Origin: a virus
Lineage: Duplodnaviria; Caudoviricetes
Length of the DNA stretch: 57,017 nucleotides
Strand: one strand, 5' to 3'
IMG/VR virus record: IMGVR_UViG_3300044724_004801
Coordinates: 1-57,017 of that record
Position 1 is the stretch's first letter. Every line of letters starts with the position of its first letter. A program made the translations under genes and the position numbers. Below are positions 25,474-32,260 of this stretch, piece by piece. A model generated the notes under the pieces. The model had not been told where the DNA came from, searched no databases, and saw nothing but the letters and a program-made list of their open reading frames with translations.

Positions 25474-26496
25474 CTATAAAATGACATTGGCGTTATCAAC
25501 AATCCACTGACGACAGTGTTTGTTGGATTTAAGATTTCTGTCAACGGCTAAACAACCTTTGACAAGTATGACTTGAAACTCGACCGGAATCTTTTTGGCT
25601 AGCTTCATAATGTTTTCCATCTTGTTGTCGACAGCTCGCGCTGCAACAGAACTCGATAGAGCATACAAGACAGCTGGGTTCTCATCCTTCTTGTATGTTG
25701 ATGGATCTTCGAGAAGTTTGTCGATGTCAGGCAGCTTGTCGGATATTTCTTTGTATGCAAGAAACTCACCGGCTGGACCATCACCGACAATAGAAGAGAT
25801 GCCAAAGAACAACGAATCATGGTCGACGTTCTCCGGTTGAACTCTTAGCTTTTTGTTAACAAAGGCCCATGCACGCGGAGTTGGAAACGCATACTCATCA
25901 GCACTGAAGCTGTAGAGTAAATTGGGTCGATATTGCAAGAAGCCAATAACCTCGGGAGAGACATTGTTGGCATATGCCCACGATACCCAATCGTCGATGT
26001 TGGCTTCCAACTCGTAGTGCGCGAGTCTGTTCCTCACAGGAGAAGGCATTTGATAGACGGCTGCAGCATCGGTTAGACGGTTACCTGCAGCAAGCATAGA
26101 CCAGCCGCTCGGTAGTTCATAGTCACCGATACGTCTGGTAAGTAAAAGTTGCAGGAAAGCATTCTGTGTCGCAGGCGGAGCAGTCGGTAGCTCGTCAATG
26201 AACATCATACCTGTGTCACCATCCCGACTTTTAATGGGAAACACGTCAGGTACCGCCCAACGAGTAAAACGCTTTCCTGTCTCTTTTTCCTGCATGATGT
26301 GTGGGACTCCACGCACATCGACAGGGTCAAACAGGTTTGCACGAAAGTCGATAAGATTCATACCGAGACTGTCCGCGACTTGTTGGGGTATTTCTGATTT
26401 ACCGATGCCTGGCCCACCCCATATCATTGTATTGATGCCGGCACGCATATTTTGCTTGATCTCTGATATCAGAGCTGATGGTTTTATAGAATGCAT
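25474..26496 (-). CDS. MoxR-like AAA+ ATPase
   Basis: GGPGIGKS, DVRGVP, FIDE, AAGN, NR, TPRAW. Confidence 0.92.
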   Translation of the reverse strand: MHSIKPSALISEIKQNMRAGINTMIWGGPGIGKSEIPQQVADSLGMNLIDFRANLFDPVDVRGVPHIMQEKETGKRFTRWAVPDVFPIKSRDGDTGMMFIDELPTAPPATQNAFLQLLLTRRIGDYELPSGWSMLAAGNRLTDAAAVYQMPSPVRNRLAHYELEANIDDWVSWAYANNVSPEVIGFLQYRPNLLYSFSADEYAFPTPRAWAFVNKKLRVQPENVDHDSLFFGISSIVGDGPAGEFLAYKEISDKLPDIDKLLEDPSTYKKDENPAVLYALSSSVAARAVDNKMENIMKLAKKIPVEFQVILVKGCLAVDRNLKSNKHCRQWIVDNANVIL

Positions 26497-26506
26497 AGTT
26501 ACCTCC

Positions 26507-26692
26507 TTATGTTTCTATGGGTTCTACATTAATTACTTCTATTTGCTCGCCAGTAGCGATTGACTTAATAAAAGCGAGTTTGGCTAGCAGCTTATAATTA
26601 AAGTTGCTATTAAATTCTGGAGCAGAAAACGTAATTGTTATCTGCATATCTGGTGTGTCTTTATCGACAAATGTGGCTCTCCATTTAATCAT
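26507..26692 (-). CDS. Hypothetical protein
   Basis: Coupled ORF. Confidence 0.6.
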   Translation of the reverse strand: MIKWRATFVDKDTPDMQITITFSAPEFNSNFNYKLLAKLAFIKSIATGEQIEVINVEPIET

Positions 26693-27012
26693 TTCTTACC
26701 CCCTTTGATAATTTTAAATGGTCTTACTTTAGTGGCTGGTTCAAATAGTATGTCTGGCTCAAACCGTGGTGTAGTGAACCAAACGGCAACGCTCAACGGT
26801 TCACGTTCGTCAAGATGTGATGACTCACGATATGAGGCACACAACTTAGCTATTTCACCGAAAAGGTAATCAAATGATTGGTTATCAGAACGATAACCTA
26901 AGCAATAGCTAGTTTGGTTTGGCAGTTCCTCAAAGTCTAAACGCTGAGCAGTTTCTTCTTCTAGAACTGAGATTTGAATGTGTATTTCGTAGGCAGTATC
27001 GTCTTGATACAT
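26689..27012 (-). CDS. Hypothetical protein
   Basis: Start revised to ATG 27012 after the AGGAGG SD. Confidence 0.65.
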   Translation of the reverse strand: MYQDDTAYEIHIQISVLEEETAQRLDFEELPNQTSYCLGYRSDNQSFDYLFGEIAKLCASYRESSHLDEREPLSVAVWFTTPRFEPDILFEPATKVRPFKIIKGGKK

Positions 27013-27034
27013 AAGCACACCTCCTGTGCATAAA

Positions 27035-27182
27035 TTGCTGGAAAGTAGACGGAAGGGAAGAAATTAACTTAATAATAAGTAAAAATGCCTACCTTCCAGC
27101 AAACTTGTTAAATTGTCGGGAAACAAACGGTTGGTTATAAATATTTACGTATACAATTTAAAAAGTGTTTGCTTCCCAACAA
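27035..27182 (-). ncRNA. Candidate structured RNA: two tandem 16-bp stems with 36/38-nt AU-rich loops
   Basis: Arms 27035-50/27087-102 and 27113-28/27167-82; all four non-Watson-Crick pairs are G-U on the - strand. Confidence 0.6.
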
Positions 27183-27184
27183 AC

Positions 27185-27340
27185 TTAATAATAGTTTTTC
27201 CAAAAGTCACGCCAAATAGATTCGGCATACTCTTGAGACATATGATCGTTTGGGTACTCTTCTTCAACTGCTTTCATATACTGAGAAAAGTCAAAGCCTT
27301 CATTCATAATAGAGTCGCAAAACTCTTCAATGTCCATCAT
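27185..27340 (-). CDS. 51-aa acidic protein (not in ORF track)
   Basis: MMDIEEFCDSIMNEGFDF...WRDFWKNYY*; co-oriented with neighbours. Confidence 0.6.
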   Translation of the reverse strand: MMDIEEFCDSIMNEGFDFSQYMKAVEEEYPNDHMSQEYAESIWRDFWKNYY

Positions 27341-27348
27341 GTGATCTT

Positions 27349-27540
27349 TTAAACGTCCCATGTTTGTCTCTCCTTAACTACTCTACCTGAAAGGTATTCA
27401 GTCTGAGATAGCGTTTCGCGTTTACCTTGATTGTTGATGGTTGACTGAAAATAGATAAACTTAATTTTTTTATCTAGCGCTTCTATGGCTAGCTCTTCTT
27501 TACGTTTCTCTACTTTCTTTCTAGTGTGATAATCGGCCAT
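27349..27540 (-). CDS. Hypothetical protein
   Basis: ORF in operon. Confidence 0.6.
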   Translation of the reverse strand: MADYHTRKKVEKRKEELAIEALDKKIKFIYFQSTINNQGKRETLSQTEYLSGRVVKERQTWDV

Positions 27541-27549
27541 AATATCTAC

Positions 27550-27930
27550 CTACCACCAACAACTATACCAAACTTTCTTACCTTGATCTAACCAGGCAAG
27601 AGCCTTGTCACAGAAGTCAAGGTCATACGAAGCAGATGCACGCATCTCTTCGTCTTGATACTGTTGACCCCAAAAGAAGCCATCTTTGGCTTCAGGTAAA
27701 GAGTAGGTTGTGATTTTGTTTTTAAGATCAACAATGTCGGCTTTATCAAGATAAAGATCGACGCAATTAAATTCACAACCCATTACACCAAATGGTGCTT
27801 CTTTGCCTTGCTTTTGATACCAAAGCTGACGCATAAACTCTTGCAATCTTGCATGCTTGCGCCATTCAAATTCTATTTTAGGCTCGTCGTTTTCTGACTC
27901 GAGCCAGCCTGCTGACATATCTAGTCCCAT
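27550..27930 (-). CDS. Conserved phage protein (MGLD...WRK...GFFWG...YxxWW family)
   Basis: Motif pattern; start revised to ATG 27930. Confidence 0.7.
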   Translation of the reverse strand: MGLDMSAGWLESENDEPKIEFEWRKHARLQEFMRQLWYQKQGKEAPFGVMGCEFNCVDLYLDKADIVDLKNKITTYSLPEAKDGFFWGQQYQDEEMRASASYDLDFCDKALAWLDQGKKVWYSCWW

Positions 27931-27958
27931 GTGCACACCTCCTGTGTGTAAAAAAAGA

Positions 27959-28227
27959 TAGGTAGAAGTAGCGTGGCCTATCTTACTCTTCTATAAAGAA
28001 GTCGTCCTACTCTCTACTTCTACCTAAACTGGTAAAAAATTAAATGGCTCGTTTGCGACCACAAGTGAGCCAGACTTGCCTTATGGGTATATGAAAACCC
28101 TGGTCTTATATCGGTTGGCGAGCCTTTTTCATTTCTCGCCTGAGTCTTACGATGAACTAATCCCTACCGCTTGACAAAATTTACATCTCTCCACTGTCCT
28201 ATCGGTAGGTCAATACAGTGGAGAGAT
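27959..28227 (-). ncRNA. Candidate structured intergenic RNA/leader with a series of hairpins
   Basis: Perfect 13-bp inverted repeats 27959-71/28014-26 and 28185-97/28215-27, plus 6-bp stems tggctc/gagcca and ggcgag/ctcgcc. Confidence 0.45.
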
Positions 28228-28233
28228 AGAAGA

Positions 28234-29010
28234 CTAAGCTACGTCGGACAGATCCATTGCCTCGTTGGCTTGCTTAGTCATTGTCATTGCAGACTTGATG
28301 GAGGTGTCAACTACATTGTTGTAATTCCACTCTGCAAGTCTTTGCAATCTTAACTCGACTTGAGTTTTTACCCTAAACTCATCGATTGAGACATTTTTTA
28401 AACCAAAGTCGCTATCGATAGCAGCTAGAGCAGTCTTGAGTAAGCGAGCTTTTCTACCAAGCTGAAGCATTTTATCTTCACGCTCGATGAGCCACTCAGG
28501 AATCTCTTTGGTCGGATCTTGTTCCGCCATAGATTCTTTATACTCATAGACAATCGAGACGAACTCAGCCCATGTTCTAGTAGCCAACTGTAGAAAGTTG
28601 ATACCAGTAGTCTGAGGGTCAACCTCGAGCAACGGCTTTTGCCCAAGAACGATTTGTTCAACTTGTAAGTTGAAGTACTCACGTTCTTTGTCAGCAAGAG
28701 CGTCGTCATCCTTGTTGAATGTTTGCTCAGTATCAATCTTTTCATTGAAGATCTTCATGATGCCAAATATTCTACTTGGATTGAAGGTTGGTTTGCCTTC
28801 ATTATCAAGCATGTATTTCTTGTAGAAATAATCAGGCAAGATAATGTCGTCTTGGGTGGCTCTTCTTTCAGAGCCTTCAGGATCACCATTGGTGTCTGGA
28901 GACCAGGCACTTTCTGGGGTGTGTTTTGGTGGCAATAGCTCACCGGTTTCACCGTTTTTTGTATCGATCTCGATCTCGAGATCAGTTGGATCAAAGAAAT
29001 TATCACTCAT
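28234..29010 (-). CDS. Acidic hypothetical early protein
   Basis: 258-aa ORF, AAGGAGG SD. Confidence 0.75.
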   Translation of the reverse strand: MSDNFFDPTDLEIEIDTKNGETGELLPPKHTPESAWSPDTNGDPEGSERRATQDDIILPDYFYKKYMLDNEGKPTFNPSRIFGIMKIFNEKIDTEQTFNKDDDALADKEREYFNLQVEQIVLGQKPLLEVDPQTTGINFLQLATRTWAEFVSIVYEYKESMAEQDPTKEIPEWLIEREDKMLQLGRKARLLKTALAAIDSDFGLKNVSIDEFRVKTQVELRLQRLAEWNYNNVVDTSIKSAMTMTKQANEAMDLSDVA

Positions 29011-29147
29011 TTGGCACCTCCTTGTGGTTGAGAGTGTTGGTTTCGATTTGCAATTACTTGCTTTATATCCTGATAATTAACTTCAGGTATGTACAAGTAA
29101 TCACTCGCATTCTGACGAATTGACTCGTCAATGTGTTTTTCTTCCAT
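29007..29147 (-). CDS. 46-aa early protein
   Basis: Start revised to ATG 29147 after the GGAGG SD (MEEKHIDES...). Confidence 0.6.
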   Translation of the reverse strand: MEEKHIDESIRQNASDYLYIPEVNYQDIKQVIANRNQHSQPQGGAK

Positions 29148-29176
29148 ATATACCTCCAATATGGTTATAAATACAC

Positions 29177-29216
29177 AAACTATAAACACCCGTTGCAGAC
29201 GCGGAGCGGCGCAACG
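29177..29216 (-). promoter_or_regulatory. Box+hairpin element 1
   Basis: + strand aaactataaaca-cc-cgttgc(a)gacgc-GGA-gcggc-gcaacg. Confidence 0.65.
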
Positions 29217-29246
29217 CACGCACACGCACATATGGTGTTCCCCCAT

Positions 29247-29268
29247 AAAAAAGGGGGCCGAAGCCCCC
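29247..29268 (-). terminator. Rho-independent terminator (cUUCGg loop)
   Basis: gggggc-ttcg-gccccc-tttttt. Confidence 0.85.
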
Positions 29269-29274
29269 AATTGG

Positions 29275-29631
29275 TTACGCTACATCTACTGCAGGTAGAT
29301 CTAACTCAGACTGTGTTGTCTGAGCTTGGATCTTTCTTTCAGCTGGGTAGAAAGTGAATTCTTCCTGACCAAGCTGTTTGATTACCACAGCGCCATTTGG
29401 CTTGAGGTAAGCATACTCAAACAGCTGATCCATGGGCAAAGTCACATTCTGACCTTGCTCATCAGCTTTAGGATTTCTCCTAGTAGCGTTAAGAATAAGG
29501 TTATCCTTTTGAGTGATAACCAATGAATTGCCCTCACGTGGGCTAACGTTTGCGGTAAATGACATAATGTCCTCCTTGGCTTTCGCCTGTTTATTACCAA
29601 TTATTAAACTTAAAAACTCTCTTCTATTCAT
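29275..29631 (-). CDS. Hypothetical early protein with two in-frame SD-led starts (29631, 29565)
   Basis: GGAG before MNRREFL; AAGGAGG before MSFTANV. Confidence 0.7.
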   Translation of the reverse strand: MNRREFLSLIIGNKQAKAKEDIMSFTANVSPREGNSLVITQKDNLILNATRRNPKADEQGQNVTLPMDQLFEYAYLKPNGAVVIKQLGQEEFTFYPAERKIQAQTTQSELDLPAVDVA

Positions 29632-29651
29632 AAGAACTCCAAAAATTTTAT

Positions 29652-29692
29652 AAACTATAAACATCCAACCAACCTCCGGTAGGAGGTGGTTG
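29652..29692 (-). promoter_or_regulatory. Box+hairpin element 2
   Basis: aaactataaaca-tc-caacc(a)acctcc-GGTA-ggaggtggttg. Confidence 0.65.
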
Positions 29693-29814
29693 AATCGGTC
29701 CCTGGGTTAACTTCGGTGCTGTTATGCTCGGAACACTTTTCTTGCTAGCAGAACGTGAACATAACTACCCGGATTCTTCTTACTTGGTAAGCATACTTTT
29801 CTCCAATTATTTAA

Positions 29815-29858
29815 AAACTATGAACATATAGCTAACTAGTGGTAACTAGTTAGCTATA
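29815..29858 (-). promoter_or_regulatory. Box+hairpin element 3
   Basis: aaactatgaaca-tatagctaactagt-GGTA-actagttagctata. Confidence 0.65.
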
Positions 29859-30007
29859 GATTTGGGGGGCTCAGGCTGGAGCCAAAGTTCTTCCCCGCAA
29901 GTGCAAGGGATAATACCAATGAGATCTATACCCATTGTTTCCCAAATCTCATCAATCTCAACTTGAGTTGTATTACAAGCTGGACACTCTTCTCTTTTGA
30001 TACTCAT
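29846..30007 (-). CDS. 53-aa Zn-ribbon-like protein
   Basis: CPAC...CTC; start revised to ATG 30007 after GGAGG. Confidence 0.65.
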   Translation of the reverse strand: MSIKREECPACNTTQVEIDEIWETMGIDLIGIIPCTCGEELWLQPEPPKSIAN

Positions 30008-30028
30008 AAGTACCTCCAATAAATTTGT

Positions 30029-30068
30029 AAATCGTGAACACCCAGCCAAGTAACGGAGTTACTGGCTG
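30029..30068 (-). promoter_or_regulatory. Box+hairpin element 4
   Basis: aaatcgtgaaca-cc-cagcc(a)agtaac-GGA-gttactggctg. Confidence 0.65.
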
Positions 30069-30448
30069 AGATATTCTTCCCTTAACTCCATAAGTAGTCT
30101 CGGGAACTCGGTAGACCAAATACCTTTATCTTGCGTATGCGTAAGGGTTTTACCCTTAGTAGCAAGAAGGGCGCCTTTAGCGACCGGGTTTTGGTCAAAA
30201 CTAGCTCTTAACAGCTTTTGCATAAGAGCTATATTCCAATTATCTAAGGTTTTAGCCTTACCACGGCCAATAAACTTAGAGCCTTCTTTCCACGGCCGAG
30301 TGTATGTAAAAGAGTCGAACGCACCAGCTTTCCAAGTTTGGTAAGCATGCTCGACGCTTTTATACACGAGGCCATTTTTATCGGAGAAAGGCCGCTCAGC
30401 TAAATTACTTAGCCAAGCATTCTCATTCGATCCATACCATATATTCAT
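30059..30448 (-). CDS. NADAR (YbiA/DUF1768-like) family protein
   Basis: LSN...YKSVEHAYQ..K...M..LLRA.F.QN....LLAT...D.GIW...LM.LRE. Confidence 0.8.
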   Translation of the reverse strand: MNIWYGSNENAWLSNLAERPFSDKNGLVYKSVEHAYQTWKAGAFDSFTYTRPWKEGSKFIGRGKAKTLDNWNIALMQKLLRASFDQNPVAKGALLATKGKTLTHTQDKGIWSTEFPRLLMELREEYLSQ

Positions 30449-30450
30449 AT

Positions 30451-30612
30451 CTACCCCTCTAATAATTCCTTAATAATAACTTTATCTTCTCTACACTCTT
30501 TACACACCAAACCTAACTCATACTCTCTACAACTACCATACATCTCACTCTCCACTACCAACTCTTCTACTTCTTTCACTTCACCACATGCATTACATTC
30601 ATTTATATTCAT
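30451..30612 (-). CDS. 53-aa Zn-finger-like protein encoded almost without cytosine (not in ORF track)
   Basis: MNINECNACGEVKEVEELVVESEMYGSCREYELGLVCKECREDKVIIKELLEG*; AAGGAG SD. Confidence 0.65.
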   Translation of the reverse strand: MNINECNACGEVKEVEELVVESEMYGSCREYELGLVCKECREDKVIIKELLEG

Positions 30613-30633
30613 AATTAACTCCTTAAATTACAT

Positions 30634-30672
30634 AAATCGTGAACATACGCCACCGGAGGAACGGAGGTGGCG
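30634..30672 (-). promoter_or_regulatory. Box+hairpin element 5
   Basis: aaatcgtgaaca-ta-cgccacc-GGAGGAACGGA-ggtggcg. Confidence 0.65.
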
Positions 30673-30750
30673 AAGAAAAACTACGAATAATGGTACATGG
30701 TCCACGGTCGGTGTTTAATAATTCGTAGAAATTAGGTGTGTTTTCTACGA

Positions 30751-31039
30751 TGTTCCACATGTTCCACAATGTTCCACGTAAAATAGGGGGTAGTGGAACA
30801 CGTTTAAGCCGCTCTGGGCTTGCGTTTCAGAGAAATGTTCCAAATGTTCCATTAAAATTAGGGTAATTCAAATATAAAACACTTTTTGATTTTAGATGTT
30901 CCCTTATAACAAAATGCATTTTTGGTGGAACACTGGAACATTGGACAGCAAATTCTGCCCAAACCCGCAGTTTTATTGAATAAACTGTGTTCCATGAAAA
31001 TGTTCCATAAGGTGATTTTGACGTGGAACACGTGGAACA
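30751..31039. repeat. Heptamer iteron field (TGTTCCA x7, TGGAACA x5), putative replication origin
   Basis: Exact copies at 30751, 30760, 30770, 30836, 30845, 30988, 31001 and inverted copies at 30794, 30926, 30934, 31024, 31033. Confidence 0.75.
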
Positions 31040-31136
31040 TTTTTCCATGGAGCACACGCACGCGTGCACGCACCCTTAACCACCGCACATCACTACGTGA
31101 TGATAGTAGTGCACACGATGATAGTAGTTAAAGGGT

Positions 31137-31152
31137 GGGGGCCGAAGCCCCC
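31137..31152 (-). terminator. Terminator-like hairpin identical to 29253-29268
   Basis: gggggc-ttcg-gccccc followed by acccttt. Confidence 0.55.
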
Positions 31153-31175
31153 TGGGAGAATCCCTTTGATATCTA

Positions 31176-31277
31176 TTAACGTTTGTTAATCTCCGTACAG
31201 AATAAATAAGTCATGGCGATTATCAGTGGTATAGATAGAATGTTAGCGATGATTTGAACAATATATAGTAGATCCAT
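31176..31277 (-). CDS. 33-aa single-TM peptide (not in ORF track)
   Basis: MDLLYIVQIIANILSIPLIIAMTYLFCTEINKR*; GGAGG SD. Confidence 0.6.
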   Translation of the reverse strand: MDLLYIVQIIANILSIPLIIAMTYLFCTEINKR

Positions 31278-31279
31278 AA

Positions 31280-31543
31280 TTACCTCCAACACTTGTATGT
31301 CTGACACTGGCCGTCGATGTATGGTCCTTCACATATGTTGCAGGACAATACGTCGCCGGTTGTGTCCGGCTTTGCCTTGGGCATAACGATGCTAGTGTAT
31401 CGTGCGTCCTTAGCTTTCCATCCTTTCTTGAACTCACGCGATGCGCGGGCAATAGTAGGAATAGATTTAACTGCTACTTTAGTGGATAGATCTACGACAG
31501 ATCTTGTAGCTGAACCAGTTAGTTGTATAAGTTTATTTAACAT
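31280..31543 (-). CDS. Hypothetical protein, first gene of the leftward arm; C-terminal CxxC..CxxxxC
   Basis: GGGAG SD; ORF. Confidence 0.65.
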   Translation of the reverse strand: MLNKLIQLTGSATRSVVDLSTKVAVKSIPTIARASREFKKGWKAKDARYTSIVMPKAKPDTTGDVLSCNICEGPYIDGQCQTYKCWR

Positions 31544-31581
31544 TGTTTATTACTCCCGACCAATCAAGGTCATATATACAC

Positions 31582-31623
31582 AAACAAAGAACACACCGAC
31601 GAGCGACGTTTAGGAGCCGGCGG
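31582..31623 (-). promoter_or_regulatory. Box+hairpin element 6 (degenerate)
   Basis: aaacaaagaaca-ca-ccgacg(a)gc-GACGTTTAGGA-gccggcgg. Confidence 0.45.
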
Positions 31624-31783
31624 AAATTGAAACAAGGTTCCAGAAGATGAAAACAAGGTTCCAAAATAAAAAACGGAATCGGGGGAAGGGGTCACCGCGC
31701 GAAGCGGGGGGGAGAATATGGATACGTGATGTGTTATAGTATTTTCGAAAAAAAATTTCTGAAAAAAATTTTCAGGAAAAATT

Positions 31784-32260
31784 ATGGCAAAAAAAGTTTG
31801 CGATCGCTGTAAGAAGGAACTTGACCTTTCCAAATTTAGCACAGAGAAATTACGCTCTGGGAACCCGTACCCTCGAAATGTTTGCAAAGCCTGTGTCGTG
31901 GAACATCGACAACGAAGGTGTAGCAGCGACCCCAAAACTTTTTTATTGCACATTTACAATAGTTTGAAAAACAAACGTAAAGATACTTGTGATTGGGAGT
32001 TAGTGCCCGAGGATTTGTACGACGCGTGGGATGAACAACTCGGCCGTTGTGCGTTGTCCGGGAACTTTATGACATGGCAAAAGGGCGAAGGACAAACGGA
32101 ACTCAATGCGAGTGTCGATAGAATATCACCCTCTGGCAGTTATACACGGACCAATATTCAGCTTGTTTGTTATCGAGTTAATATAATGAAACACGTACTT
32201 ACCGACCATGAGCTATACTGGTGGTGTAAGAATATAGTGACAACTAAAGAAGATTTTTAA
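31784..32260 (+). CDS. Zn-binding HNH-like endonuclease
   Basis: CxxC..CKAC; GRCALSG; SVDRI...YTRTNIQLVC..VN.MK. Confidence 0.75.
   Translation: MAKKVCDRCKKELDLSKFSTEKLRSGNPYPRNVCKACVVEHRQRRCSSDPKTFLLHIYNSLKNKRKDTCDWELVPEDLYDAWDEQLGRCALSGNFMTWQKGEGQTELNASVDRISPSGSYTRTNIQLVCYRVNIMKHVLTDHELYWWCKNIVTTKEDF

Follow-up and report, generated by a model that had tools for sequence, protein, structure and literature searches.

An uncultured marine phage carries two large-looped hairpins, one behind the other, in the space between two small genes. What do they do for the phage? On the minus strand, a gap of 166 nt leads from a gene for a 58-aa protein to a gene for a 107-aa protein, and both hairpins together fill it. 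The window, meaning the whole stretch of DNA analyzed here, is the entire virus record IMGVR_UViG_3300044724_004801, with 57,017 bases and a rating of 97% complete, and represents a near-complete 57-kb podophage. Its plus strand codes for terminase, portal, major capsid protein, tail fibres, and endolysin. The minus strand carries a replication block with DNA polymerase, a primase-like protein, a helicase, an exonuclease, and a MoxR-like ATPase. Among cultured phages, the Pseudomonas phages KPP25 and phiR18 come nearest, with 55% identity for the major capsid protein and about 33% for the DNA polymerase, and the ATPase is about 31-36% identical to those of N4-like phages and others. No match to cultured phages was obtained at the DNA level by megablast or blastn, and the listed titles and abstract openings of papers on KPP25-like phages do not mention such hairpins. 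As no RNA polymerase family was detected in the 39 ORFs scanned, the phage is presumed to be transcribed by the host RNA polymerase. A phage RNA polymerase using hairpin promoters, an idea taken from the N4-like ATPase, was set aside on the same result. The scan of the window for tRNA and tmRNA genes was empty.

For comparison, 59 related viral loci were fetched via the neighbouring ATPase, and alignment of the 58-aa protein led to a further 6 viral and 17 metagenome loci; loci and contigs are cited below by L numbers. Near-identical DNA occurs in estuary, salt-marsh, and seawater runs. Four public runs (X7, X11, X15, and X17) were compared with the window over positions 26000-28600 in the form of assembled contigs, which give no RNA ends, strand, or level. 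The features discussed are collected in Table 1.

Table 1. Features at and near the twin-hairpin junction, in window coordinates.
Feature	Position	Strand	Description
58-aa gene	27185..27361	-	TAA stop codon 27187-27185, 2 nt ahead of the unit 1 stem
Unit 1 hairpin	27113..27182	-	16 bp, arms 27182-27167 / 27128-27113, 38-nt AU-rich loop ending CCAACC
Unit 2 hairpin	27035..27102	-	16 bp, arms 27102-27087 / 27050-27035, 36-nt loop ending CCTTCC
Present/absent 80-nt segment	27100-27179	-	Bounded by AAGTTTG direct repeats 27186-27180 and 27106-27100
Shine-Dalgarno hairpin	27015..27029	-	5 bp, GGAGG in the loop, directly before the 107-aa start codon
107-aa gene	26689..27012	-	Start codon ATG at 27012
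H3 element	27948..28031	-	84-nt insertion with 8-nt repeat bounds, upstream of the 126-aa gene (27930-27550)

The sequence-only reading had described tandem 16-bp stems with loops of 36 and 38 nt, characteristic loop starts and ends, and four non-Watson-Crick pairs that are all G-U on the minus strand. Each of these points was seen again in the sequence, and the tandem arrangement stood, but the stated period of 78 nt is in fact 80 nt (27182 to 27102). AAGT stands before each unit and TTTA behind it. The hairpin finder recorded two transition mismatches in every 16-pair stem, which read A-C on the plus strand and G-U on the minus strand. When the region 27010-27200 was folded with RNAfold, the minus strand, on which the RNA stems had been proposed, gave the more stable structure, with -55.7 kcal/mol (z = -5.8, equalled by 0 of 200 shuffles) compared with -42.5 kcal/mol (z = -3.0) for the plus strand. 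The large loops of the minus-strand structure are predicted to be mostly unpaired. A strict scan of the whole 57 kb for hairpins with at least 16 pairs, at most 2 transition mismatches, and a loop of 20-55 nt returned exactly two hairpins, namely units 1 and 2. The same scan of 20 mononucleotide shuffles returned none in 18, one in one, and two in one, with a mean of 0.15. The twin hairpins were thus confirmed as real and beyond chance.

The stems were compared among six distinct alleles, taken from the window units and related contigs, which align without gaps. On the sense strand, every one of the 96 stem cells forms a standard pair, and the alignment contains 12 G-U cells and no A-C cell. 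Ten of the 16 pairs are variable, four of them changed on both sides and six via G-U. Neither the paired fraction nor the covariation score was matched in any of 500 shuffles, a control that ignores the relatedness of the six alleles to one another. When the partner was slid by 1-3 columns, pairing dropped to 30-58%. One-sided G-U changes occur at about seven separate stem positions, and one position can be followed in steps from C-G (unit 2 of the window) through U-G (L072) to U-A (L075). One-sided G-U pairs and a stepwise path are what selection on RNA pairing is expected to leave, and the alignment therefore gives good support for selection acting on the pairing of the sense-strand RNA. The claim of RNA-level selection on the minus strand, made originally from four G-U pairs, is strengthened in this way by a G-U bias across six alleles, by compensatory changes, and by pairing that is kept in relatives while the pairs themselves vary.

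A more distant lineage (L001/L002/L076/L077) has a single hairpin at this junction, and most of its stem sequence is different. The stem length is again 16 bp; the loop measures 39 nt, one pair is G-U on the sense strand, and, compared with the homologous flanks, the stem sits one pair further up. The L002 group (three sequences) was omitted from the pair count, because MAFFT set it one column out of helix register. As for the loops, four alleles have a core and a C/U-rich 3' end in common, which may leave room for a sequence-specific role; the loop of unit 1 and that of the L002 group are unlike the others.

Wherever the 58-aa and 107-aa genes are adjacent, a hairpin of this kind lies between them. 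Two units are present in the window, L069, L070, and L071, and a single unit is present in L072/L073, L075, L063/L074, and L001/L002/L076/L077. One unit is the commoner state, found in most relatives and in a ~98%-identical strain, so the twin layout described for the window is correct there and is a strain polymorphism rather than a fixed feature. The joint 27099->27180, which skips 80 nt and has seven ambiguous letters corresponding to the 7-nt AAGTTTG repeat, was found in a 3,618-nt contig assembled from X7 DNA and also in a contig from the RNA library X15. Outside the joint, the X7 contig and the window disagree at 19 of 1,100 letters on one side and at 17 of 768 on the other. In X11, the junction of the one-unit form lies a few bases further in (27091->27172). 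Since the joined form stands in DNA, the one-unit joint is a strain difference and not RNA processing.

Unit 2 is the copy that one-unit strains retain. In the 5' arm, 3 of 16 positions separate unit 1 from the L063 allele and 6 of 16 separate it from unit 2; between unit 2 and the L072 allele, the number is 2 of 16. The simplest account of these alleles would be that units 1 and 2 are two alleles of one hairpin joined by unequal recombination, and the two-unit form can collapse to one unit via the same recombination. The bounding 7-nt repeat belongs to the unit homology, and unequal crossing-over explains the present/absent segment as well as the insertion of a mobile repeat would. One-unit, two-unit, and chimeric junctions were all observed, and no gene gain or loss was traced to the two hairpins. 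The X15 RNA-library contig (depth 2.3) links the 58-aa gene to the one-unit hairpin, which is compatible with co-transcription but may also reflect DNA carry-over. X15 has little or no cover over about 26870-27043, and a contig ends near the 3' end of the hairpin; coming from contig data of a single study at this depth, that end was not counted as an RNA end.

Signals that could make the hairpins independent transcripts were sought around them. A consensus scan of 26000-32000 revealed no sigma-70-like site in or between the hairpins. The single upstream site (27215-27188, 9/12) lies within the end of the 58-aa gene and reads TATTAC in L063, where the last, invariant T of the -10 element is lost. 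A Bacteroidetes-type -7 motif in TAAGTTTG was also considered and set aside, as unit 2 and L002 are without the TA and the genes have strong Shine-Dalgarno sequences. The terminator scan was silent at both units and detected a canonical terminator at 29268-29253. Three U follow each stem, but L069-L071 and L063 have TTC, so the U-run is not conserved. The hairpins differ from intrinsic terminators in their 36-40-nt loops and in having only three, non-conserved U, and from independent small-RNA genes in having neither a conserved promoter nor a 3' end signal of their own. The proposal that they are small RNAs encoded as separate genes did not hold, with the promoter site lost in L063 and the 3' U-run not conserved, and a small-RNA gene finds no support in these scans.

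Known families were likewise absent. The Rfam search suggested by the sequence-only reading gave no family, with 0 matches to Rfam 15 at the gathering threshold in the whole window. At E <= 10, only generic microRNA precursor models appeared, the best scoring 26.7 bits where the gathering score is 60.5. When the window and the 59 loci were searched by BLAST with the units, only self matches and chance matches of 12-18 nt appeared. A covariance model, R1, was built from the six alleles and run over 698,862 nt (the window and 80 loci); it matched at this junction only and missed the diverged L002-group hairpin. A relationship to a MITE or REP family, named at the outset as the finding that would speak against functional RNAs, appeared neither with BLAST nor with R1, and no transposase-like gene was present among the ORFs scanned.

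Two further observations concern the minus strand beyond this junction. The stretch 30700-31100 is gene-poor, lies near the divergent early region, and is dense in direct and inverted copies of GGAACA/TGTTCC, which are probably protein-binding sites in a regulatory region or origin; relatives of the window have analogous arrays built from a different word. At 29690-30660, several early genes are preceded by a hairpin, then a TGTTCACGATTTA-like motif, and then a ribosome-binding site, and this motif is a candidate phage-specific promoter or processing signal.

The flanking proteins offer little to define the role of the spacer. Homologues of the 58-aa protein could be aligned from four lineages, the 107-aa protein has only three homologous clusters, and neither protein belongs to a Pfam or PHROG family. 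The AlphaFold model of the 107-aa protein (pLDDT 65) had no Foldseek match in the PDB at E <= 0.001. Families, homologues, and model give no hint of an RNA-binding or nuclease role. Pfam, PHROG, and fold comparison found no ToxN/AbiQ-like protein, a test weakened by the low confidence of the 107-aa model.

The position of the hairpins is precisely held on both sides. AAGT, whose first two letters end the TAA stop codon, stands directly before the stem in all six aligned alleles. In the five alleles that lie directly before the 107-aa gene, the Shine-Dalgarno hairpin is reached within about 5 nt. The 13-nt start motif, with GGAGG in the loop of a 4-5-bp hairpin, is repeated at 27946-27934 before the 126-aa gene and also occurs at equivalent gene starts in L001-L007 and L063-L084. 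Within the window it marks only two genes, and both stand behind big-loop hairpins. Gene content between the 126-aa gene and the ATPase is variable among the 59 related loci, and in many relatives the two are adjacent. Sister phages have other structured RNAs in this slot behind the 58-aa gene, again followed by the Shine-Dalgarno hairpin. This replacement of unrelated folds by one another before the same ribosome-binding hairpin suggests that a stable self-contained fold is needed, and not a loop sequence. The loops had been read as possible sequence-specific guides or antisense segments, a view that is disfavoured by the drift of the loops and by the unrelated structures that hold the slot in related phages.

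Two kinds of structure were seen in and around this slot in other phages. One consists of two interleaved 10-bp helices with a pseudoknot-like topology, in which 80 of 80 cells are paired; it occupies the slot in sister phages at L083:622-716, L082:878-972, L007:4592-4686, L081:959-1068, and L084:1064-1160. In L081, one of its helices is wholly re-coded, with five two-sided changes. The other is an element of ~100 nt that has a 10-13-bp closing stem of varying sequence and shared interior blocks. It was located at about 4300-4400 of L003, about 5360-5460 of L005, and about 878-985 of L084, and lies either immediately ahead of the start motif or immediately behind the 58-aa gene.

The window itself contains a third big-loop hairpin, H3, before the 126-aa gene. 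The hairpin (28026-27959) has a perfect 13-bp stem (28026-28014 / 27971-27959) and a 42-nt interior, and a T-run follows. The joint 27947->28032, which skips 84 nt and has 7-8 ambiguous letters, was found in one contig each of X15, X17, X7, and X11. In L003/L005/L007, the uninterrupted site consists of a small hairpin, a T-run, and the start motif. A minor contig of X7 (depth 2.7) has H3 beside a different upstream sequence. Copies 98.7% identical over 79 nt lie right after the 58-aa gene at L081:882-960 and L084:987-1065, and the only other alignable flank of the copy there is 72-74% identical. H3 is absent from the position after the 58-aa gene in L082, L083, and L007. Diverged copies exist at L024:5764-5853 and in an unrelated phage contig at L061:14738-14827. 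Both retain 30 invariant interior positions around a compensating inner hairpin, and the outer stem is specific to the copy; the L061 copy begins right after a good TTGACA-16-TATGAT promoter. No Rfam family fits H3. Judged from these comparisons, H3 is a small structured element that was transferred recently and whose core is conserved, and it is a candidate new mobile structured RNA. It is the most striking member of a wider pattern of exchangeable structured RNA modules.

On the minus strand, the opening of the unit 2 loop (27086-27079) resembles a T-run-plus-AC word at the H3 insertion site and flanking repeat (28040-28032), and the hairpins may have been built around former linker sequences. 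At the start of another contig (L075:1-100), the H3 interior is present in one and a half tandem copies upstream of the 126-aa gene; this tandem is either real or an assembly effect at the contig end.

The hairpins at the junction combine structure, RNA-strand asymmetry, compensatory evolution, a fixed position, and polymorphism, and they do so without promoter, terminator, or repeat-family features. They are probably transcribed within the operon. We favour, tentatively and with somewhat less than even confidence, the reading that they form a cis-acting intercistronic mRNA element for processing, stability, or insulation at a module border, a role that we infer from the comparisons above. The two units would be tandem alleles of one cis-acting structured spacer inside a leftward polycistronic mRNA. 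The spacer would start at the stop codon of the 58-aa gene and reach as far as the hairpin in which the Shine-Dalgarno sequence for the 107-aa gene is presented. Selection would retain a 16-bp RNA helix around an AU-rich loop of 36-40 nt that stays mostly unpaired. The helix would fold by itself and serve as an intercistronic processing and stability element, either as a double-stranded target of a host RNase III-type enzyme, as a barrier to exonucleases, or as both. RNase III substrates usually span roughly two turns, and the shorter 16-bp helix counts against RNase III. The helix might also shield the ribosome-binding hairpin against interference by the upstream coding sequence, and the downstream hairpin would thereby always lie in the same structural context. 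The slot would be a module border at which related phages recombined to produce the two-unit form, and one-unit forms would arise again.

Other roles have to be weighed against this. Processed trans-acting small RNAs would require that the hairpin is excised and that its loop pairs with host or phage RNA or titrates a protein. The loops are indeed largely single-stranded in the predicted fold, a loop core and a C/U-rich 3' end recur in four alleles, and a long closing stem is typical of stable excised RNAs. We nevertheless regard such RNAs as unlikely: conserved promoters and terminators are missing, the loops of unit 1 and the L002 group differ from the rest, unrelated structures occupy the slot of sister phages, and BLAST of the window and the 59 loci detected no antisense match of at least 12 nt to the units within the phage. 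A broader version takes the slot behind the 58-aa gene as a landing pad for interchangeable, horizontally moving structured-RNA modules that would be cut from the early transcript and act in trans. Its modules would include the 16-bp/large-loop hairpins, H3, the interleaved-helix element, and the ~100-nt element, which might serve, for instance, as decoys for host defence or RNA-decay proteins or as inhibitors of them; we consider this quite unlikely. Translational control of the 107-aa gene, in which the loop end or 3' arm pairs with the Shine-Dalgarno sequence or the stem aids re-initiation by coupling or in a shunt-like manner, would suit the stop codon 2 nt before the stem, the Shine-Dalgarno hairpin about 5 nt after it, and the pyrimidine-rich loop ends. 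However, unit 1, which lies away from the ribosome-binding site in the two-unit form, is equally well paired, and relatives have unrelated structures in the slot, leaving this role unlikely too.

The remaining two alternatives place the function in transcription or in the DNA itself. At the neighbouring junction before the 126-aa gene, relatives have canonical GC-rich terminators where the window has H3 and its T-run, and the stem-loops of promoter-early stem-loops (PeSLs) terminate transcription according to the accessible part of their description (PMC2839356). An attenuator or terminator between gene modules, similar to the stem-loop part of a PeSL, is still very unlikely for the twin hairpins in view of their 36-40-nt loops, the three non-conserved U, and the silent terminator scan. 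A DNA-level palindrome or foldback (serving recombination or replication, or forming a cruciform) or a miniature mobile element, with stems produced by template switching, would agree with the presence/absence polymorphism between short direct repeats and with the neighbouring H3, which has clearly moved between phages. Template switching can create and repair hairpins, as stated in the available part of one report (10.1101/2021.04.15.439925), but it would yield perfect complements and not one-sided G-U pairs. The 12 G-U cells against 0 A-C cells and the stepwise C-G/U-G/U-A series instead correspond to point mutation under pairing selection. Dispersed copies were not found by R1 or BLAST, nor transposase-like genes in the scanned ORFs, and we consider an element of this kind highly improbable.

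Variable regions of phages are usually read as lists of orphan proteins, and here the spacers between the genes are conserved, structured, and exchangeable. If the hairpins are processing or insulation modules, as in the reading we favour, that function would account for the exchange of orphan genes among phages with expression preserved, and the hairpins would be nature's equivalent of the synthetic insulators that designers of genetic circuits use. Should they prove to be released RNAs, phage take-over of the host would gain RNA players, and landing-pad modules, if real, would make up a new class of accessory 'RNA genes' in phages, spreading in the manner of gene cassettes. Either way, the stepwise series of compensatory alleles is a clean natural case of RNA helix evolution.

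Several known systems resemble the locus in part. In the early mRNA of T7, RNase III hairpins lie between cistrons, and the cut leaves protective structures on the flanking mRNAs; these sites are irregular helices, about two turns long, interrupted by an internal loop and capped by a small apical one. The twin hairpins are similar in being intercistronic within a polycistronic mRNA, with cleavage here being putative. REP/BIME and ERIC sequences likewise include hairpins right after stop codons that are present or absent among strains and keep their pairing. Unlike these dispersed multi-copy families, the twin hairpins occur at one gene junction only, and the neighbouring H3 fits that kind better. 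With type III toxin-antitoxin systems, they share tandem structured units directly before a small protein gene and an association with phages; in contrast to ToxI-like repeats, one unit is common here, no ToxN/AbiQ-like protein was found, and the units are simple hairpins.

Closer parallels come from other phages. As far as the available parts of Arbiol et al. 2010 (PMC2839356) describe them, the PeSLs of T4-type phages are intergenic, have G-T pairs in their stems, and carry a Shine-Dalgarno sequence at the 3' end. They cluster near orphan genes in hyperplastic regions, where recombination inserts, deletes, or swaps modules, and are defined by a strong sigma-70-like promoter together with a short terminating stem that often has a G/C run. 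The junction studied here likewise has a stable stem-loop with a 3' Shine-Dalgarno sequence near orphan genes in a variable region, but it differs in that no promoter was found, the stem has 16 bp, the loop has 36-40 nt, no U-tract is conserved, and the stem evolves by compensation. In Cluster K mycobacteriophages, according to the portions available of Pope et al. 2011 (PMC3203893), about half of the start-associated sequences (SAS) have an imperfect 17-bp inverted repeat (ESAS) right upstream; its arms follow a genome-wide consensus with a 4-13-bp spacer at many genes, and a role in translation is suspected. The conserved start motif behind a long inverted repeat is the feature in common, whereas the arms of the twin hairpins are allele-specific, their spacer is 36-40 nt, and the start motif is found at two genes of the window only. 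Among the systems compared, we place the twin hairpins with the intercistronic structural elements at phage module borders.
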